Below are positions 2,481 to 40,614 of a DNA stretch of 44,588 nucleotides, piece after piece. The notes beneath the pieces were generated by a model. That model did not search any database. It was not told where the DNA came from and was given only the letters and a program-made list of their open reading frames with translations. Source of the DNA: Patescibacteria group bacterium. GTDB taxonomy: Bacteria > Patescibacteriota > Patescibacteriia > Veblenbacterales > UBA10138. The first letter of the stretch is position 1; every line of letters begins with the position of its first letter. Position numbers and translations under genes: made by a program. The stretch spans positions 1 to 44,588 of the forward strand of contig JBDRTU010000052.1 of assembly GCA_043823825.1 (NCBI GenBank), given 5' to 3'.

Positions 2481-2508
2481 AAAAAATAGCTAAAATTAGC
2501 TATTTTTT
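2481..2508. terminator. AT-rich inverted repeat, probable terminator downstream of tRNA-His
   Basis: AAAAAATAGCTAA-AA-TTAGCTATTTTTT. Confidence 0.5.
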
Positions 2509-2511
2509 AAT

Positions 2512-2551
2512 TGGGTGGCTGTTGGGATTTGAACCCAAGCTAAAGGCTCCA
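2512..2551 (-). pseudogene. 3' half of a diverged tRNA-His-like gene
   Basis: Reverse complement TGGAGCCTTTAGC-TTGGG-TTCAAAT-CCCAA-CAGCCAC-CCA gives a T arm and acceptor 3' strand with no 5' half. Confidence 0.6.
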
Positions 2552-2597
2552 TTCAACCCGCCAATGGTTATAGTATAAATATAGAGAGATACAAGGG

Positions 2598-4321: not shown

Positions 4322-4944
4322 AAAGTCTTAATTAATTCAGGCAACTCTTTAAAGGATGAAATGCAGGCGTCGGCATTATCAAACTTTTTATGTGAGTAAA
4401 TTATTACTCTCATATCAGCGGCACGTGCTGTGACAATGTCATTTTCCACATCTCCTATATAAACACACTCATTAGGCCTTACTTCTAGTTTTCTAGCTGC
4501 CAATAAAAGTGGTTCGGGGTGCGGTTTGTGATTAACTGTATCTTGATAAGATACTGCTGCACCAAAATACTTTTTTAGTTCCTCTAAACTAGGGCCAACG
4601 AACATAGTCTCCGCTACCCGGCTAGTTACAATTCCTAATTTATATTTTTTTCTTAGAGCTTTTACTGCCTTAGCCGCGCCTATTGTCATGGTAGAGAAAC
4701 GAATGTAATATTGCCCCGCTAATCTTCTCCCCTCTTCCCACATTTTCATTATCTCCTGCTCATTAGTAGTTTTAGACAGAACTTTAATTGCATCGTATAA
4801 ATTGTAATGAAAAATCTGGCGATACTCTTCAGCCGTGGGCGGCTGGTAACCGTTCTTTTCCATCAAATCCTGAAAAAAATTCAAATTAGCTGGAAATGAA
4901 TCCATTACTACTCCATCAATATCAAAAATTACTGCTTTAATCAT
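4318..4944 (-). CDS. HAD-IA hydrolase (phosphoglycolate phosphatase-like)
   Basis: MIKAVIFDIDGV, KPHPEP, YIGDVENDI; start moved to the ATG at 4944. Confidence 0.9.
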   Translation of the reverse strand: MIKAVIFDIDGVVMDSFPANLNFFQDLMEKNGYQPPTAEEYRQIFHYNLYDAIKVLSKTTNEQEIMKMWEEGRRLAGQYYIRFSTMTIGAAKAVKALRKKYKLGIVTSRVAETMFVGPSLEELKKYFGAAVSYQDTVNHKPHPEPLLLAARKLEVRPNECVYIGDVENDIVTARAADMRVIIYSHKKFDNADACISSFKELPELIKTL

Positions 4945-4970
4945 AAATGTTAGTGGTACCCCGAAGGCCT

Positions 4971-4987
4971 GTCCGCCTCGGGCGGAC
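4971..4987. repeat. Short GC-rich palindrome GTCCGCC-NN-GGGCGGAC, copy 1
   Basis: Related copies at 34758-34774 and 40278-40294. Confidence 0.6.
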
Positions 4988-5023
4988 TTAGAAATCCGAG
5001 ATTCTATTTTACCCCACTCCACT

Positions 5024-5301
5024 TGCCCCCGAGAGGAATCGAACCTCTATTAGCGGCTCCCGCCTACGCTTAAGGCTTCGGTGGGCAAGTAGAAGTCCGC
5101 AGTTCCCCGCCTGCCATCACCTATGCCCTTGAGAGGAATCGAACCTCTATCAGCGGCTTAGAAGTCCGCGGTTCTATCCATTGAACTACAAGGGCACAGG
5201 GCATGGCGGGCAGATATCTATTATCCGCCTCCATATTTTAATATTACGGCGGATCCTCGCCGAAGCTTAAATAAATTAGCGGAGGCGGAAACTACGAGGG
5301 C
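5024..5301 (-). pseudogene. Outer tRNA-Arg(TCT) interrupted by three palindromic insertions
   Basis: Segments 5290-5301, 5215-5223, 5090-5105 and 5024-5058 join to a 72-nt tRNA that differs from the inner copy at 7 positions. Confidence 0.85.
5124..5195 (-). tRNA. tRNA-Arg(TCT), intact and nested in the interrupted copy
   Basis: GCCCTTGTAGTTCAATGGATAGAACCGCGGA-CTTCTAA-GCCGCTGATAGAGGTTCGATTCCTCTCAAGGGCA. Confidence 0.95.
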
Positions 5302-5418
5302 TAGCCGTAGTTAATTAACTAAACTCTACTACTTATCCCTATTTTAAGATAATTTGTCAACTATCGCCACACTTACAAACAAAATGGGTTAATGGCATAT
5401 AGAGCAGTAAATTGAAAA

Positions 5419-6720
5419 CTACCAAGGCAATATTAACCCATAAGTAGTTGGTGCGAGCAACAAAAACGAAATGACTACTATATAAAGATAGGCTGGCAGT
5501 AATCGTTTTTGCCAATAAGTGTTTCTAATACACCAATCTTTCACTGATGGCCAAATTAAAGGCACTAATAAATAACCAAATATCAACGCTGGAAAATAGT
5601 GATAAATAAAAAATACTCTATTAATAAAAAAGAAAGGTATATAACTTATAAAAAATGCCAGTAGTAATAGGGTCCGATTATCATCTCGCAATACACGATT
5701 AGTTAAAGAGAGAATGGACAAAAGTAACGCTACCACTAGAGCTATAATAACAGAAAACCAACCTACTGGATTACCCTGAACAATAATTGCACGGTCATTC
5801 TCAACTAATATTCCTAACTTTTTTTCACCAACCAGCCATTGTTGAGGTTGGCTGGAATTTGCATGTTCAGAATAATTACTGTTAGCTTTAAACATAGTTA
5901 CAAATAATGTTGGTAGATAACGCACAATACCTACCAAATCATTTCCCGGAGGATATTTCAGCCGTTCAGAAACAGTCTGAATTTTACCTAAACTAATCGG
6001 CGTCTTACTGTTAACTCCTCCGATAGAAGCAAAATAGATTACCCATATTGTTAGATGAATAAATAAAATAAATAACAATGCTAACGCAAATTCACGTAAT
6101 CGCTGTTGCCGCCATAACCACCAACCTAAAACTGCTATAAAACCCAAGGCGATCCATTTTACCGACAAAGCGCCGCCCAACAGCGCGGCTCCGCAGATGA
6201 ATAAGAGATATCTAATTTTTTTTGATCTTGCGCTCCCTCCTATTAAAAATAAAGCAAGGCCCCCGAAACCTAAGAAGAGTAACAAATTTTCTGGTAACAT
6301 TAATCTTGAATATACTACCAAAGAATTGTCCCAAATTACCAACCATGCAGCGATCACTGCCTGCCAAGTCGCCATTGAAAGAGCTCGTGCTATTAAATAA
6401 ACAGCTATCACTAATCCCGCTCCTAAAAATGCGTTCAATTGACGTGCAGTCTGATAAGGAAATTTATTAATGGTCTGGCTGGTATTCTCAATTTGTAAAG
6501 AAGGTTGATAAGATTTAACTGATACTGCATTTACTAATGAAGATAAGGGTGGATGCACTGTAAAGTAGGGTTGTTGGTGCAAGATATAAGTGGCAAAAGT
6601 TGCTTCTGTAGATTCATCAAATAAAGCTTGAGTAGGATATGATAATTTTGGTAATCGCAATAAAAGCGCCAGTAAAAAAAGACCGATTATGATTGTGTAA
6701 TCTTTTTTAGTCAACAACAT
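5419..6720 (-). CDS. Protein O-mannosyltransferase-like glycosyltransferase (PMT/GT39)
   Basis: Multi-TM; LFDE, VHPPL, SVKW, GNPVGW, RVFFIYHYFPAL. Confidence 0.85.
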   Translation of the reverse strand: MLLTKKDYTIIIGLFLLALLLRLPKLSYPTQALFDESTEATFATYILHQQPYFTVHPPLSSLVNAVSVKSYQPSLQIENTSQTINKFPYQTARQLNAFLGAGLVIAVYLIARALSMATWQAVIAAWLVIWDNSLVVYSRLMLPENLLLFLGFGGLALFLIGGSARSKKIRYLLFICGAALLGGALSVKWIALGFIAVLGWWLWRQQRLREFALALLFILFIHLTIWVIYFASIGGVNSKTPISLGKIQTVSERLKYPPGNDLVGIVRYLPTLFVTMFKANSNYSEHANSSQPQQWLVGEKKLGILVENDRAIIVQGNPVGWFSVIIALVVALLLSILSLTNRVLRDDNRTLLLLAFFISYIPFFFINRVFFIYHYFPALIFGYLLVPLIWPSVKDWCIRNTYWQKRLLPAYLYIVVISFLLLAPTTYGLILPW

Positions 6721-6761: not shown

Positions 6762-7715
6762 TTAACCCTTTCTGCGCCGAGAGTGAAAAGCTTTATGTAC
6801 TTCGCCCAATTGCTTATCAGTAACGTGAGTATATACCTGAGTAGTAGTAATACTGGCATGCCCGAGTAAAGTTTGTACTGCTCTTAAATCAGCGCCCGAA
6901 GATAATAAATCAGTGGCAAAGGAGTGCCGCAGGGTATGTGGAGTAATTTTTCGTGTGATACCTGCTACTTTACGATAATACTCAATTGCTCGCTGTACAC
7001 TGCGGGTAGATAATGGATGCGAAGCTGACTTTCCTTTTTCTCTTCCTTTGGCTGCCCTGTCGTGACCGATAAATAAAGCTGGATCAAGATCAATACGTTT
7101 ATCTAAATATTTTTTTAAATGATTCTTGGCAGTAGTTGATAAAAAAACTACACGCACTTTGCCGCCTTTACCTCTTATTGGCATTTCATCTTTTAATAAA
7201 TTAATTTGATCACATTTTAAACTAACTAACTCCGACACGCGCATACCAGTAGAAAAAAGAAGTTCTAAAATAGCTTTATCACGTAATTTAATAATATGTG
7301 CTTCATTGGTTTTAAATGGCGCTTCCAATAATCGTTCTAAATCTGATCCCTCCAAAAATTCCACCTGTCGCTCTTGTTGTTTAGCTAACTCAATTTTCTC
7401 AGGTGCGAGTGACACTAAATCGCGCTTACGTAAATATTTAAGAAAAGAGCGTAGGGCAATTAAATGGTAATTTTGGGTAGTGTGGGAAAGTTCTTGTCCC
7501 CCTCGTGACTGAAAACGATTTAACCACAAACGAAAATTGCGAATCTGGTCAGCGGTAATGTCTTGGGGTTTTGATTTTTTCTTTAAACTTGTTCTTAACC
7601 AAACCAAAAAGCGTGTGAGGTAAAAATCATAATTACGAATTGTCAGCTTTGAACGCCCAAGTTCTATTTCTAAATATTCCAAAAAGTCATGAATGTAGTC
7701 GTGCAAAGTGGCCAT
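6762..7715 (-). CDS. Tyrosine recombinase XerC/XerD family
   Basis: RDKAILELLFSTGMRVSEL, GKGGK, PHTLRHSFAT, LLGHASITTTQVYTHV. Confidence 0.95.
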   Translation of the reverse strand: MATLHDYIHDFLEYLEIELGRSKLTIRNYDFYLTRFLVWLRTSLKKKSKPQDITADQIRNFRLWLNRFQSRGGQELSHTTQNYHLIALRSFLKYLRKRDLVSLAPEKIELAKQQERQVEFLEGSDLERLLEAPFKTNEAHIIKLRDKAILELLFSTGMRVSELVSLKCDQINLLKDEMPIRGKGGKVRVVFLSTTAKNHLKKYLDKRIDLDPALFIGHDRAAKGREKGKSASHPLSTRSVQRAIEYYRKVAGITRKITPHTLRHSFATDLLSSGADLRAVQTLLGHASITTTQVYTHVTDKQLGEVHKAFHSRRRKG

Positions 7716-14177: not shown

Positions 14178-16013
14178 CTATTTGCTGGCCAGCTTAGTAA
14201 CTGCTTTCAAAATAGCCTTAGTTCCAATATTTTCGTAATCTAATAATTGCTGCGGGGTGCCGCTTTTTGGTTGCTTCCAAACTGCTAGCGACACGATTTT
14301 TATTTTATATGGCCCCAAGGCAGCTGCTACTGCCTCACCCAAGCCGCCAGCGGGACGGTGATCTTCTACTGTTAAAATAAATTTAGTTTGCTTGGCACAT
14401 TTTAGTAATGTTTTTTTATCTAACGGCTGAATGCTATACAAATCCACTACCCTCACCACGACGCCTTTCTTTTTAAGTTGATCTGCTGCATCAAGTGCCT
14501 GATATAATGTTACGCCAGCAGACACAATTGTACCAACATCTTTATTAGATTGTCGCACCACCTTACTTCCACCAAGTATAAATTTTTCTGTTGATTGATA
14601 CAAAACTTTAGTTTTGCCTCGGGTGGTGCGAATATAAACTAGGCCGCGAGTGCTGGCCGCTAACTCTACCAATCGTTCGCAAGAGACAGCATCGGCTGGA
14701 TAAAATATTTTGGCTTCAGGCAATGTGCGGAACATTGCCAAATCTTCTAACCCCATTTGCGAAGGTCCATCAGCGCCAATTGATACGCCGGCATGCGAGC
14801 CCACGAATTTAATATCGGCGTCAGCATACTGGCTCATTCTAATCTGATCAAAGGCTCTGGTAAAAAAAGCAGAAAAGGTTGAAACAAAAGGAATTTGGCC
14901 AACACGTGCTAAGCCCACTGCGGCGCCAACCATATTTTGCTCAGCAATAAACATTTCTAAAAATCTCTTAGGATATTTTTTAGCAAAAATTTGTGCATTA
15001 GTTGAATTACTAACCTCAGCATCAAGTGCAGCTATTTGTGGCCATTGTGGATATATTCTTACCAAAGCACTGCCATAAGCTTCTCGGGTAGCTACTAAGT
15101 CACCAAGTTTATATTTTGGTGCCGCTATTGGTTTTTTATTTAAAGACGGCAATACGCGCTGATTTGGTTCACTAACCTGTCCGCGCACTTTAAAATCCAG
15201 CGCGCCTAAATCCTTAACAGCCTTTTTAAATTCTGCCGGTTTCAAAGCCCTGCCATGCCATCCTAGTTTATTCTCAATTAACTTTATACCTCTGCCTTTT
15301 ACAGTGCGAGCAATAATGGCAAAAGGGCGATTAGTATTTTTTAAAGCTAATTTATAAGCTTTAAGTATCTCGGGCCAAGAATGACCATCAATAACCACAT
15401 TTCTCCACCCTAAAACAGTTAGCCGTCTTTGGTAGGCCTTTAGATTATACCCATACATAGTTGGCCCACGCTGACCCAGACGATTTACATCAATAATTGC
15501 CACTAAATTACAAAGCTTATAGTAACTCGCTAGCTGAAGAGCCTCCCAAACCGAGCCCTCACTCATTTCACTGTCACCTAATAAAACATAAGTTCTGTAT
15601 GAAAGATTAGTTAAGTATTTAGCAGATAAAGCCATACCTAAACCAATAGATAACCCTTGCCCTAAAGAACCAGTAGCTGCTTCGGTATAAGGAAAGGTCA
15701 TAGTGGGATGTCCTTCCAAAGGACTGTTAAACTGTCTTAGTTTTTTTAATTGCTTTAGTGTTAAAACTCCAGACAACGCCCATAAAGAATAAAACAAAGG
15801 GGCAGCATGTCCTTTAGAAAAAATTAGTCGGTCATTATTATTGTATCCTGGTTGATTAACCCGATATTTAAAAAAGCCACCAAAACAAAGGCCAACCATC
15901 AGATCAGCCGAAGACAAGCATGAACTAAGGTGACCTGATTGAGCAGCAGTAGTGGATACTAAACTATAGTAACGCGCTAAGCGACTTAGTTTTTCTAAGT
16001 TAATTTCTACCAT
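14178..16013 (-). CDS. tkt: Transketolase
   Basis: SKGHAAP, GSLGQG, LGDSEMSEG, IAEQNM, GADGPSQ. Confidence 0.95.
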   Translation of the reverse strand: MVEINLEKLSRLARYYSLVSTTAAQSGHLSSCLSSADLMVGLCFGGFFKYRVNQPGYNNNDRLIFSKGHAAPLFYSLWALSGVLTLKQLKKLRQFNSPLEGHPTMTFPYTEAATGSLGQGLSIGLGMALSAKYLTNLSYRTYVLLGDSEMSEGSVWEALQLASYYKLCNLVAIIDVNRLGQRGPTMYGYNLKAYQRRLTVLGWRNVVIDGHSWPEILKAYKLALKNTNRPFAIIARTVKGRGIKLIENKLGWHGRALKPAEFKKAVKDLGALDFKVRGQVSEPNQRVLPSLNKKPIAAPKYKLGDLVATREAYGSALVRIYPQWPQIAALDAEVSNSTNAQIFAKKYPKRFLEMFIAEQNMVGAAVGLARVGQIPFVSTFSAFFTRAFDQIRMSQYADADIKFVGSHAGVSIGADGPSQMGLEDLAMFRTLPEAKIFYPADAVSCERLVELAASTRGLVYIRTTRGKTKVLYQSTEKFILGGSKVVRQSNKDVGTIVSAGVTLYQALDAADQLKKKGVVVRVVDLYSIQPLDKKTLLKCAKQTKFILTVEDHRPAGGLGEAVAAALGPYKIKIVSLAVWKQPKSGTPQQLLDYENIGTKAILKAVTKLASK

Positions 16014-29282: not shown

Positions 29283-29542
29283 GCCCTCGTAGTTTCCACC
29301 TCTGTTTTTGATAGTTTTTACTTCGGCGGATCCGCCATAATTATTGTAAAATAATGGAGGCGGACAATGGATACCTGCCCGCCATTGCCTGAGCCCCCAT
29401 AGCTCAACGGATAGAGCAAGCCCGTCCTAAGGGCGAGATGATGGTTCAATTCCGTCTGGGGGTATAGGCGATGGCAGGTGGGGAAGACTAATTAAGTTTT
29501 CACCCTTCGGGTGACCACCCGCAGGGTGGCGAGCTGGGGGCA
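29283..29542 (+). pseudogene. Outer degenerate tRNA-Arg scaffold with palindromic insertions (paralogue of 5024-5301)
   Basis: GCCCTCGTAGTT (29283-94), CAATGGATA (29365-73), GAA (29483-85) and acceptor-like TGGGGGCA (29535-42); same two insertion points as the 5-kb locus. Confidence 0.75.
29393..29464 (+). tRNA. tRNA-Arg(CCT), nested
   Basis: GCCCCCATAGCTCAACGGATAGAGCAAGCCC-GTCCTAA-GGGCGAGATGATGGTTCAATTCCGTCTGGGGGTA. Confidence 0.9.
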
Positions 29543-35091: not shown

Positions 35092-35478
35092 ATTTACTAT
35101 TATTAAGGTACTTTATCCAACCATTAGTCATTTTAGAAAGATTTTGTAGGTCGGTTTCCATGTCCAAATAGGTTTTACTTTCTACAATGTGTAAATTGTT
35201 ACTTAGACGAATTAATCTTTTTAAAATTTCTAATTTTATTCGCAGTGTTTTAAGCGGGGCATTTTTTTGGCTTCCAGATTCAAATGATGCAGTAATACAT
35301 AATTCTATAGTTTCTAGACAGATATTTTCAATTTTTAAGTATATTCCATAATGGTCGCGCTTCGTCATTTTTGGTCCCAACTGGTAAACTGTTTGGTAGA
35401 AAGTTGTTAGTTTATGCACCAAAGGCACGTCAAAAGTGTCGGGGGGGGGGGGGGCGATACTGGAAAAGTTTTGGTCAT
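35090..35478 (-). CDS. avd: Avd-like accessory four-helix-bundle protein; ATG at 35478 out of frame at C14 (currently open only from GTG 35428)
   Basis: DVPLVHKLTTFY, KRDHYGIYLKIEN, LEILKRLIRL, GWIKYL; lies between TR and RT. Confidence 0.85.
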
Positions 35479-36483
35479 AATATTTTTGAAAAAATAATTA
35501 ATTTAGAAAATTTGTTTTTAGCTTGGCGAGAGTTTAGGCGCGGTAAACGAAGTAAATTAGATGTACAGAAGTTTGAATTTAAGTTAGAAGACAATTTATT
35601 TACTATTCATGATCAGTTGGCCAGTGGGATTTATGTAAATAACCCCTATGTTTCTTTTTATATTACCGATCCGAAATTGCGGCATATTCATAAAGCTAGT
35701 GTTAGGGATAGAGTAATAAATCAGGCGGTATTTCGTGTGTTATATCCTATTTTTGATAAAGTTTTTGCATATGATTCGTATTCTTGTCGGGATAATAAGG
35801 GGTTACACAAAGCAGTTGATAGATTAGAGTTATTTTTAAGGCGCGTTAGTCGAAATTATCAAGAGCCAGTTTGGGTGCTTAAATGCGATGTTAAGAAATT
35901 TTTTGATTCTGTTGATCAGGAGCGATTATTTGGCTTTATTTGTAAAAGATTATTTGACAGACGAGCGTTGGATTTGGTTGAGAGAATAATTAGTAGTTTT
36001 TCTGTTAGTGCTGGTAAGGGGTTGCCGCTAGGAAACGTTACCAGCCAGTTGTTCGCCAACATTTATTTGAATGAACTGGACCAGTTTATCAAACACCAGT
36101 TAAGGGTAAAATATTATTTGCGGTATTGTGACGATTTTATTATTTTAGATAATGGTAAAAAATATTTATCTGGATTAATTGATAAGATTAACGAGTTTTT
36201 AAAGAATAATTTAGAGCTGGAATTACATCCAAGAAAAATTATCATTAGAAAATACCGGCAAGGTATAGATTATTTGGGTTATGTTTGTTTGCCACATTAT
36301 CGGGTGCCGCGCACCAAAACTAAACGGCGGATATTAAGGGTATTGGTGGGGAAAAGTTATTTAGTTAAACAGGGGCGTTTTAGTCAAACGATTTTTTATA
36401 GCTCTCTCCAATCTTATTTTGGAGTTTTAAAACATTGTCGAGGGTTTAAGGTTAAGCAGCAGATTTTATCAGTAATTAAATAG
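35414..36483 (+). CDS. DGR reverse transcriptase; ATG at 35414 out of frame at G14 (currently open only from non-ATG starts such as TTG 35371/35404)
   Basis: RDRV, KCDVKKFFDSV, GLPLGNVTSQLFAN, YCDD, IDYLGY; no in-frame Met anywhere in the ORF. Confidence 0.95.
35441..35454. repeat. G14 homopolymer inside the avd/RT overlap
   Basis: 14 consecutive G in an AT-rich genome. Confidence 0.95.
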
Positions 36484-40211: not shown

Positions 40212-40267
40212 CCCATGGCTAAATAGCGTATGGCGAATGGCTTATAGTTAAAATAGTTCACAGTAGC

Positions 40268-40393
40268 GTCATTGCGAGTCCGCCTAGGGCGGACGAAGTC
40301 ATCCCTTTGGGAGATCACCCATAGTGTGACAATCTCCCTAAATTATGATTCCCGTCCCTTTTCCTTGTTATTCTCGTGAAAACGGGAATCCAG
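40268..40393. repeat. Cluster of REP-like palindromes
   Basis: GTCATTGCGA-GTCCGCCTAGGGCGGAC, GGGAGAT...ATCTCCC, ATTCTCGTGAAAACGGGAAT. Confidence 0.5.
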
Positions 40394-40614
40394 AAACAAA
40401 ACATTTAATCAGTAATTTCTAATTCGTATAATATACAAACTCTTGACTATATTACGAAAACACTTCGCATAATAACGAGTTATATGAAATTTGTTCACCA
40501 CCTAAAAACGCAGATGCTAACGCAAGATAGAAAAATTGAGAGTTGGCGCCCCTCGATGTTTTCCCTGCTACAATCAGAAAAGCATTTATATAATTCCCCT
40601 TATTCTATAATCAG

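Follow-up and report, generated by a model that had tools for sequence, protein, structure and literature searches.

A tRNA gene inside a tRNA gene

The window analysed here is positions 1-44,588 of contig JBDRTU010000052.1 from a Patescibacteria group bacterium (GenBank assembly GCA_043823825.1). On its minus strand, with genes for a HAD hydrolase and a PMT-family glycosyltransferase as neighbours, lies a tRNA-Arg(TCT) gene split into four pieces by three inserts, the second of which carries a complete tRNA-Arg(TCT) of its own. Outer piece 1 (5301-5290, 12 nt) supplies tRNA positions 1-12. Insert 1 (5289-5224, 66 nt), between outer positions 12 and 13, is a composite hairpin with an outer stem TCCGCCTCC/GGAGGCGGA and an inner palindrome around GGATCC. 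Outer piece 2 (5223-5215, 9 nt) covers positions 13-21, and its D-loop reads AATAGATA, so that G18 is lost from the outer copy; a GG stands at this site in all the intact tRNA-Arg(TCT) genes of relatives. Insert 2 (5214-5106), a 109-nt palindromic cassette, interrupts the outer D-loop between positions 21 and 22. In it a 9-nt leader and an 8-nt trailer link the inner tRNA to a 5' arm TCTGCCCGCC (5214-5205) and a 3' arm GGCAGGCGGG (5115-5106), respectively; on folding, arms and linkers pair to form a stem that prolongs the acceptor stem of the inner tRNA. This cargo, the inner tRNA-Arg(TCT) (5195-5124), is intact and 72 nt long without an encoded CCA. All of its stem pairs (21/21) are unbroken, it is called by both ARAGORN and Infernal (RF00005, 66.7 bits), and it is presumably the working gene. 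Outer piece 3 (5105-5090, 16 nt, positions 22-37) includes the TCT anticodon and is followed by insert 3 (5089-5059), a 31-nt hairpin with arms CTTGCCCACC and GTAGGCGGG. Outer piece 4 (5058-5024, 35 nt, positions 38-72) keeps its T-arm and the 3' strand of the acceptor stem intact, and over it Infernal reports a weak partial match at 5024-5085.

The boundaries of all these pieces and inserts are exactly those of the original prediction, and its other statements on the anatomy hold as well. Joined in a script, the outer pieces give a 72-nt tRNA-Arg(TCT) identical to the inner one at 65/72 positions. The acceptor pairing said to be retained is complete in the fold that ARAGORN gives for this joined tRNA-Arg(TCT), insert 3 does lie between outer positions 37 and 38, and no target duplication is visible at any junction of the locus. 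At pair 6:67 the joined outer copy has C-G and the inner one U-A; the outer 5' and 3' pieces therefore stem from one former gene. A gap-tolerant alignment of the inner tRNA with its own flanks reaches a score of 102, compared with 40 when the query is shuffled; the nested resemblance is therefore not due to chance, and a stricter alignment returns precisely the three inserts.

A TTGACA-containing block upstream (5348-5360, minus strand), read by eye, is common to the un-nested tRNA-Arg(TCT) genes of relatives and is likely to be the promoter region for the whole composite; a consensus promoter scan upstream of the outer gene called no site, this block included. No relative with an orthologous locus was found through the upstream glycosyltransferase.

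An assembly artefact arising from mixed strains might be suspected, as the genome was binned from a metagenome, in 66 contigs, and tRNA regions seem to break this assembly, with a tRNA-Glu at a contig end. Such an artefact is almost certainly not the explanation. A second assembler yields an identical, independent contig of 27,099 nt (Logan run X1, possibly the source sample; depth 55) that spans 4900-5450 with 0 differences, and the nested architecture recurs in dozens of unrelated assemblies. Misassembly, with which the original prediction had reckoned, can therefore be set aside.

An older layer and a second nest

The original prediction overlooked an outermost third layer, a second nested locus in the window, the kinship of inserts 2 and 3, and the scale of nesting across the genome and the lineage. 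The third layer begins with an orphan 3' arm, AGTGGAGTGGGG (5023-5012, minus strand), which would derive from an older cassette whose cargo is the present outer tRNA. The same arm also follows the inner tRNA of a relative, locus L015, where the 5' partner arm exists. Beyond it lies a remnant of a third tRNA-Arg(TCT) (5011-4954, minus strand), recognized when aligned locally with the inner tRNA and with the L015 outer copy. Its first part (5011-4987) holds the end of the D-loop, the 3' strand of the D-stem and an anticodon arm with TCT; it is followed by a TCCGCC hairpin (4986-4972) and by a tail with CCA at its end (4971-4954), which we take for the former acceptor end. The arm and the remnant (5023-4954) together match the two-layer locus of L015.

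The second nest (29283-29542, plus strand) is also a tRNA-Arg locus. It is headed by a 12-nt outer piece 1 identical to that described above (29283-29294) and continues with a 70-nt homologue of insert 1 at the same position, CAATGGATA, a 109-nt cassette (29374-29482) whose cargo is a tRNA-Arg(CCT) (29393-29464), and a heavily decayed outer 3' part that ends in GGGGGCA. Between the two loci piece 1 agrees at 12/12 positions and insert 1 at 56/66, and the arms are similar, whereas the cargo tRNAs agree at 52/72; the 5' scaffold is thus more alike than the cargo. Gene conversion together with recent spread may account for this likeness. Relatives have 31-nt two-hairpin inserts at the site of insert 1 (12/13).

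A dispersed family of palindromic elements

The arms CCTGCCCGCC and GGCAGGCGGG, separated by a gap of 80-110 nt, occur in 76/401 genomes of the class and in 69/300 genera; the reversed pattern, used as a control, gave 0 matches in all 401 genomes. A 17-mer scan for arms was diluted by chance matches, and only loci with both arms were used; a 15-mer scan of the collection for the junction motif returned almost only chance matches, in GC-rich genomes. There are up to 18 copies per genome, near-identical ones standing at different loci. The genome under study has about 14 clear members of the family, and the arms are found at about 9 of its tRNA loci. Copies from many genomes share one fixed U-G and one fixed C-A position in the arms. 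The elements are 31-125 nt long, lack coding capacity and have conserved terminal inverted arms. These features, with the dispersal of copies and a presence/absence polymorphism seen for a cassette with different arms, place them in the class of non-autonomous palindromic mobile elements (MITE or RPE-like).

The cargo is either absent, a multi-copy sequence of ~100 nt, or a complete tRNA; among the cassettes at 30 fetched loci, 22/31 carried a tRNA and 9/31 another cargo. Insert 3, compared by eye with cargo-less elements of 42 nt, is a shortened cargo-less member of the family to which insert 2 belongs. Cargo-less elements (39-66 nt) are also found between genes and in frame within long ORFs, 16/35 being read through in ORFs; an 18-codon insertion in an arginyl-tRNA synthetase gene is an example. 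It follows that removal of the element from RNA is not required. Its length is a multiple of 3 in 15/16 cases inside ORFs and in 15/19 outside, so that length has no power to tell translation from splicing.

By eye, elements in tRNA-Arg genes insert after a GTT motif (TAGTT and AGGTT, each with the insertion following the last T). The arms of several nests in relatives do not resemble the conserved motif at all, and one sequence-specific transposase cannot therefore explain every nest. A Y1 transposase (IS200/IS605, RAYT-like) is absent from the genome under study; Y1 genes are present in 4/5 high-copy genomes, and no arm motif was found around IS200-like (Y1) genes at 3 loci from 3 of these genomes. 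Other hairpins flank them in relatives, and Y1 is not favoured as the mobilizer. TnpB was found in 0/5 high-copy genomes. The genome under study has three reverse transcriptase genes, with no known link to the element.

Like nests in like

Cassettes with tRNA cargo almost always occupy a loop of a resident tRNA gene whose identity matches that of the cargo. The sites are D-loops or anticodon loops, and the identities include Arg, Thr, Leu, Pro, Val, Ile, Asn, Gly and Cys. By an alignment test, 37/129 of the tRNAs examined are nested. Further nests in the same genome involve Thr(ggt), Leu(taa), Leu(cag), Arg(gcg), Arg(tcg), Arg(cct), Ile(gat), Gln(ttg), Ser(tga) and Val(cac). Filled and empty sites can be compared between sister species. 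One genome (G014) has an uninterrupted tRNA-Arg(TCT), that is, an empty site; in another of the same genus (G001), with an identical 81-nt upstream flank, the gene contains a 31-nt two-hairpin insert and a tRNA cassette, the arms of which differ from the conserved ones. There is no target duplication in G001, nor at any other junction examined (this locus, and the cargo-less and cassette loci of relatives), which argues against a DDE transposase and fits RPE-like or HUH-type elements.

Every interrupted tRNA found has an intact copy next to it, and all the convincing T-arm remnants in the genome (7/7) lie at <=91 nt from an intact tRNA of their own type. A search of the genome with the tRNAs of relatives gave no fragment of Asn-gtt, Phe-gaa, Lys-ttt or Gly-tcc; these missing isoacceptors therefore probably lie in assembly gaps.

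Decay is confined to the outer copies. Broken stem pairs occur in 0/37 inner copies, and defects are flagged in 35/37 outer copies, a count from an automated alignment that under-aligns some loci and mis-scores at least one (L020). The defects comprise loss of the D-loop GG at at least 7 loci, change of T54, altered anticodons and extra hairpins. In one genome (G251) the outer copy of a tRNA-Pro nest is intact apart from the cassette; in a second of that genus (G304) the same nest has two more hairpin inserts and substitutions in the outer copy, and the inner tRNAs differ at only 2 positions. The outer pieces of these two nests are nearly identical, and the 1.4-kb flanks have no detectable similarity; on such comparisons, outer pieces can exceed the conservation that would be expected of neutral DNA. 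Perfectly intact outer copies with an encoded CCA are those of Ile in the genome under study (C46), Arg (L060), Cys (L077) and, as read by hand, L020.

Probable replacement by nesting

In our view a promoterless mobile cassette has probably broken a resident tRNA gene and supplied the replacement, leaving a pseudogene that collects further hairpin inserts. The locus would then be a record of serial tRNA gene replacement by nesting. The outer gene would itself have arrived earlier, as cargo of an older cassette in a still older tRNA-Arg(TCT) of which the 3' part alone remains. Insert 2, as a small, promoterless, non-autonomous palindromic element with arms CCTGCCCGCC...GGCAGGCGGG and a complete tRNA-Arg(TCT) in its apical loop, would next have landed in the D-loop of the resident and destroyed it. 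The cassette tRNA would serve as replacement, transcribed from the promoter of the resident and presumably matured out of the composite transcript through RNase P cleavage, trimming of the 3' end and addition of CCA, with the arm stem acting as a plain extension of its acceptor stem; the genome has genes for RNase P RNA and a CCA-adding enzyme. The broken outer gene would by now be dispensable, having lost G18 and been colonized by inserts 1 and 3. Inner and outer copies may be subject to gene conversion, and mobilization may be the work of an enzyme acting on DNA. One of the two explanations in the original prediction, that palindromic mobile elements target tRNA genes and one carries a rescue copy, is thus supported, and extended beyond this locus, by the multi-copy family in 76/401 genomes, the empty site in a sister species and the decay of outer and not of inner copies. 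Weighing against it are the perfectly intact outer copies with encoded CCA, the outer pieces conserved beyond neutral expectation, the 5' scaffolds more alike than the cargo at the two Arg loci, the negative searches for Y1 in this genome and for TnpB in high-copy relatives, and the nests with unrelated arms.

The other explanation, removable non-canonical introns, finds no support. It belongs to a reading that seems unlikely to us, in which the inserts are removed from the transcript, or the halves form a split tRNA held together by the arm duplex, so that the outer tRNA is functional and the locus yields two tRNAs. The locus would on this account be a bacterial counterpart of the archaeal multi-intron or split tRNAs, using other machinery. 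RNA runs X7 and X21 contained short tRNA pieces of other organisms only and speak neither for nor against splicing or expression of the locus. The insertion sites are indeed all in loops, the canonical 37/38 among them, the stems contain G-U pairs on the tRNA strand, and the acceptor stems of inner and outer copies differ by compensated changes that would block mispairing; the fully intact outer copies with encoded CCA, and the outer pieces conserved between genomes with unrelated flanks, point the same way. However, sequence and fold reveal no bulge-helix-bulge at the three junctions, where the loops are asymmetric (6x1, 8x0 and 0x0): insert 3 is flanked by 6 unpaired nucleotides on its 5' side and 1 on its 3' side, insert 2 by 8 and 0, and the junction of insert 1 is flush inside the D-stem. 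The tRNA splicing endonuclease (PF01974) and RtcB (PF01139) gave 0 matches in this 97%-complete genome; of 14 reference genomes searched as controls, 4 and 10, respectively, had matches. There was no match to an intron or ribozyme family, Rfam returning tRNA alone at the gathering threshold and nothing relevant at E<=1 in 4900-5450; the inserts, at 31, 66 and 109 nt, are shorter than a group I intron core (>200 nt, covariance model). Allowed introns of 0-200 nt, ARAGORN added none to the 41 tRNA genes of the genome. The outer copy is without G18 and most outer copies are defective at universal positions; the outermost layer is without a 5' half. The in-frame reading of the element in protein genes, and the constant presence of an intact copy beside interrupted tRNAs, tell against removal as well. 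Quite improbable is a further variant, in which insertion is directed by structure and mediated by RNA, a pre-tRNA intermediate being ligated into a cleaved tRNA loop and copied back to DNA, and outer genes yield working two-piece or re-joined tRNAs. The mobile unit would here be a tRNA with paired leader and trailer. This would fit the exclusive use of tRNA loops, the cassette boundaries at the base of an RNA stem, the nesting of cassettes with unrelated arms and the same shape, and the three reverse transcriptase genes; if true, it would be a bacterial route to split or intron-bearing tRNAs independent of the archaeal machinery.

There are two further readings. The outer pieces and hairpins might be kept as a structured leader and trailer that aids folding, processing or stability of the inner tRNA, all forming one functional unit. 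We think this improbable, despite the closer likeness of the 5' scaffolds than of the cargo tRNAs at the two Arg loci of the window, the company that the 12/13 hairpin insert keeps with the cassette in many genera (the young G001 nest included), and the complementary leaders and trailers found at many un-nested tRNA genes here too. Clean nests without an extra hairpin exist (L060, L093, L270, L289, L077 and C46 of this genome), outer 3' parts decay beyond recognition, as at the second locus, and un-nested orthologues work without any scaffold. Alternatively, the fragments would be the ordinary debris of integrase insertions or tandem duplications, that is, remnants of attachment sites, with no dedicated tRNA-carrying element. 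A gene for a Xer-type tyrosine recombinase 1.5 kb upstream, serial 3' fragments downstream of tRNA genes such as repeated integrations leave, a lone tRNA-His 3' fragment at about 2500-2560, and a Thr(ggt) locus whose pieces seem interleaved in their acceptor pairing and not nested could be read in this way. It is nevertheless very improbable: 5' and 3' outer pieces bracket a complete tRNA within 278 nt at exact loop positions, filled and empty sites differ by the inserts only, and the conserved arms, multi-copy cargo variants and in-frame copies are the marks of a discrete element. The recombinase is similar to the housekeeping XerC/D and lies apart from the locus, next to which there is no integrase; nor is there an element body between the intact tRNA and a fragment.

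Relation to known elements

The element has close analogues in the Rickettsia palindromic elements (RPE) and in similar repeats such as the PARCELs of Mollicutes, short, non-coding, dispersed palindromes that are tolerated in frame and also occur in RNA genes. The element described here is likewise short, palindromic and non-coding, with many copies, in-frame and RNA-gene locations among them, and no visible target duplication. It differs in that the arm sequence is conserved across many bacterial families, the apical loop takes cargo, and some members bring along a complete tRNA gene as a substitute for the one they disrupt. We know of no report of an RPE with such a replacement tRNA, nor of an autonomous partner for RPE.

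Non-canonical, multi-intron and split tRNAs are familiar from archaea (Thermoproteales, Nanoarchaeum), and there is published evidence for movement of introns between tRNA genes. Several inserts per gene, loop sites including 37/38 and GC-rich helices joining the halves are common to both, but the bacterial nests have no bulge-helix-bulge, endonuclease or ligase, a redundant complete tRNA lies inside, and the interrupted copies decay. The intervening sequences of bacterial 23S rRNA are excised by RNase III without religation, and the fragmented rRNA stays functional. There too a hairpin-shaped extra sequence, sporadic and apparently transferable, replaces a loop of a structural RNA, and the long stem would suit RNase III; a tRNA cut in its anticodon loop, however, would not stay functional. 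Fungal mitochondria harbour double-hairpin elements and GC clusters, tiny mobile units of two hairpins in rRNA, introns and coding regions. The 31-nt two-hairpin inserts of relatives, at 12/13 and in the T-loop, look alike, although hosts and sequences differ and the elements here follow a GTT motif in tRNA-Arg.

Integrative elements such as phages and genomic islands target tRNA genes, restore function with an element-borne copy of the displaced segment and leave tRNA fragments, which serial events can stack (PMC9897764). The cassette also targets a tRNA gene, restores its function and leaves fragments. In those systems an integrase acts, and the 3' segment alone is duplicated, kilobases away; the cassette, by contrast, is ~110 nt long without a protein gene and brings a whole tRNA into the loop of the old gene. 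A literature search, supplements aside, turned up no account of bacterial tRNA genes nested in one another, of palindromic elements that carry tRNAs, or of the arm motif.

Consequences of nesting

Such nesting recurs across this genome and in many related ultra-small bacteria. The cassette would be a selfish element with a built-in rescue, one that breaks an essential single-copy tRNA gene and becomes the sole source of that tRNA. The host could not then lose it, and the next invader could repeat the process, producing genes built like Russian dolls. This points to tRNA genes being turned over rapidly and horizontally in ultra-small bacteria that otherwise have minimal genomes. The nests may also serve as a living model for the entry of intervening sequences into tRNA loops, long debated for archaeal introns and split tRNAs. 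For annotation, nested pseudo-tRNAs, fragments and hairpin-laden remnants can be miscounted, and they probably break assemblies at tRNA loci. Since the reading frames of protein genes run through the 42-nt element, it also shapes proteins.

Anatomy of the nested locus

The locus at 5024-5301 (minus strand) proved, on re-reading of the sequence, to be dissected in the original prediction exactly to the base: an outer tRNA-Arg(TCT) lies in four pieces of 12, 9, 16 and 35 nt, split by inserts of 66, 109 and 31 nt. Rejoined, the pieces form a 72-nt sequence to which ARAGORN assigns a tRNA-Arg(TCT) fold, all acceptor-stem pairs being made; as had been claimed, 65 of the 72 positions match the intact tRNA-Arg(TCT) that the 109-nt insert carries. 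At acceptor pair 6:67 the outer copy has C-G where the inner copy has U-A, so the distant outer ends belong together. Junction inspection places the inserts at 12/13, 21/22 and, as had been stated, 37/38, and bears out the absence of target duplication at all three; a second assembler's 27-kb contig, at a depth of 55 and from a run that may be the source sample, has no differences over the nested stretch. The outer D-loop reads AATAGATA, with GG at the same place in every intact relative.

Directly 3' of the outer tRNA end stands an orphan arm of 12 nt (5023-5012, minus strand) equal to the 3' arm of the cassette at a relative's locus, L015. Beyond it lie parts of a further tRNA-Arg (the end of the D-loop, the D-stem and a TCT anticodon arm), then a hairpin and a CCA-ended tail. 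L015 has this older cassette as its innermost layer; in the window it has itself been invaded, so that replacement has taken place at this locus at least twice in succession.

A family of palindromic elements

The ends of the 109-nt insert, TCTGCCCGCC and GGCAGGCGGG, pair with each other and, in the predicted fold, prolong with short linkers the acceptor stem of the inner tRNA. The same arms flank Arg(tcg), Thr(ggt), Thr(cgt), Leu(cag), Ile(gat) and Val(gac) elsewhere in the host genome, where four or five further copies have non-tRNA cargo. With a gap of 80-110 nt, the arm pair occurs in 76 of 401 genomes of the class (69 of 300 genera), and a reversed control pattern in none of the 401. There are up to 18 copies per genome, with near-identical copies at separate loci, and the family extends to named genomes that include Saccharibacteria, Nomurabacteria, Buchananbacteria and Berkelbacteria; these, together with the size of the host genome, put the host in the candidate phyla radiation. 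At 30 fetched loci, the cassette cargo is a tRNA in 22 of 31 cases and something else in nine. One U-G and one C-A position are constant in arms from distant genomes, which suggests that the arm sequence, and not merely its pairing, is recognized.

A scan of the collection with the 3' arm also yielded cargo-less hairpins of 39-66 nt, both intergenic and within long ORFs; 16 of 35 are read through, with at least 40 open codons on either side. At L051, in a named Patescibacteria record, a 54-nt member lies in frame within the arginyl-tRNA synthetase gene, adding 18 stop-free codons between conserved motifs. The 31-nt insert of the window, similar in its core and deviating from the arm consensus at two or three positions, is read as a shortened cargo-less member.

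Nesting of like in like

A second nested locus is found at 29283-29542 (plus strand). Its cassette (29374-29482, plus), again 109 nt long and with the arms described above, carries tRNA-Arg(CCT) (29393-29464, plus) inside a decayed outer tRNA-Arg. The first 12-nt piece of this outer copy is identical to that of the 5024-5301 locus, the hairpin insert, here 70 nt, is homologous, and tRNA-Ala(cgc) abuts the outer 3' end. Nearly all tRNA cassettes interrupt an outer tRNA of matching identity in one of its loops, at 21/22 in Arg, Thr and Leu, 34/35 in Asn and Cys, 35/36 in Ile and Gly, 36/37 in Pro and 37/38 in Val. When each tRNA was aligned to its own flanks, 37 of 129 were nested (scores 76-123, against 25-60 for shuffled queries). 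Nesting affects about a dozen of the host genome's 41 tRNA genes and, in relatives, at least seven of the 19 tRNA-Arg loci retrieved; some of the latter have arms quite unlike these.

The Thr(ggt) locus of the host genome (contig C15, 12890-13330) has three layers whose acceptor-strand pairing is interleaved rather than nested. Its outer copies have a TCCCGAT-nnnn-ATCGGGA hairpin in place of T-arms; it recurs on C19, where it stands in for the anticodon arm of the outer tRNA-Leu.

An empty site, decay and proposed gene conversion

Within one genus, genome G014 offers an empty site, an uninterrupted tRNA-Arg(TCT); in G001 this gene has a two-hairpin insert of 31 nt at 12/13 and, in its D-loop, a cassette whose tRNA-Arg(TCT) is clearly different. 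The tRNA pieces and 81 nt upstream are identical between the two. Among 37 nests, stem pairs are unbroken in every inner copy; automated alignment flagged at least one defect in 35 of the 37 outer copies, but overstates the count (one, at L020, is intact by hand). Outer copies have lost the D-loop GG at seven or more loci, further defects being a T54 change, altered anticodons and missing arms.

In another genus, the same nest, Pro(CGG) within Pro(CGG), is found in G251 and G304. The inner tRNAs differ at two positions only, and the G304 outer copy has two extra hairpin inserts (D-loop and T-loop) and several substitutions. A double change among these brings the outer D-stem into agreement with the inner D-stem and points to exchange between nested copies through gene conversion, which would also explain why inner and outer bodies are often almost the same but have differing acceptor ends.

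Some observations sit uneasily with plain pseudogenes. Some outer copies are intact, encoded CCA included (Ile on C46 of the host genome, Arg at L060, Cys at L077); the outer pieces of G304 and G251 are nearly identical between 1.4-kb flanks of no detectable similarity; and the 5' scaffolds of the two Arg loci in the window are more alike than their cargo tRNAs. It is possible that the outer scaffold has a role in processing, but we attribute these features to recent spread of whole nested alleles together with gene conversion. It is also possible that the inserts are introns removed from the transcript by an unknown pathway. Conventional splicing is unlikely: a bulge-helix-bulge is impossible at all three junctions, and neither a splicing endonuclease nor RtcB was found in the host genome (97% complete), nor any intron or ribozyme family match at the nested locus. 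The intron reading is further opposed by the reading through of elements within protein genes and by the decay of the interrupted copies.

All seven convincing T-arm remnants in the host genome lie within 91 nt of an intact tRNA of the same type; fragments of the four isoacceptors absent from the assembly were sought there and not found. Of a second tRNA-His, a 3' fragment stands alone at about 2500-2560 (minus strand), made up of variable region, T-arm and acceptor 3' strand; it lies some 35 nt downstream of an intact tRNA-His (2595-2669), with no matching 5' piece visible.

Expression and mobilization

The cassette itself appears to lack a promoter. By eye, a TTGACA-containing block lies about 30 nt above the outer 5' end and also upstream of un-nested relatives' tRNA-Arg; a consensus promoter scan called nothing there. 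The composite locus would be transcribed as a single RNA, from which RNase P, the CCA-adding enzyme and 3' trimming could free the inner tRNA, in which no CCA is encoded; genes for RNase P RNA and the CCA-adding enzyme are present. The RNase P RNA gene (C26, 14156-14604) is 449 nt long against a 367-position model and holds two TCCGCC...GGCGGA-type hairpins, at 14388 and 14521, perhaps insertions of a similar kind, here into an essential RNA.

IS200-like genes occur in high-copy relatives, but the arm motif is absent at the three loci fetched; TnpB was not found in the high-copy relatives examined, nor a Y1 transposase in the host genome. The latter has three reverse transcriptase genes, on C36, on C7 and in the window (35371-36483, plus; 370 aa), the last below the cut-off of every named family and most resembling group II intron-type enzymes. 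The Xer-type tyrosine recombinase gene 1.5 kb upstream of the nested locus (6762-7715, minus) looks like housekeeping XerC/D. By eye, the relatives' 31-nt two-hairpin inserts follow TAGTT in the D-stem and AGGTT in the T-loop, which suggests a short sequence target.

Related systems and other repeats

The closest known kinds include Rickettsia palindromic elements, integrative elements that restore the tRNA gene they enter (a related paper is PMC9897764), archaeal mobile tRNA introns and split tRNAs, and rRNA intervening sequences. None of the four is known to join a protein-gene-free cassette of ~110 nt, a complete rescue tRNA and serial nesting, and a literature search found no published description of nested tRNA-bearing cassettes.

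Other repeats are also present. An intergenic cluster of GC-rich hairpins (40260-40400, plus) includes a TCCGCC hairpin framed by GTCATTGCGAG...CGAAG, a frame that recurs on C32, C29 and C60. The exact 16-nt palindrome TGTCCCGATCGGGACA, framed by AACCACTTT and AAAGTGGTT, is a separate repeat family with eight copies on C19, C31, C34, C43, C44 and C62. The host genome itself comprises 889,506 bases in 66 contigs (38.8% G+C), and two methods agree on its tRNA gene count. These genes, which include a tRNA-Ile with anticodon TAT, fall into two classes, one with encoded CCA and unpaired flanks, the other without CCA and with complementary leader and trailer.
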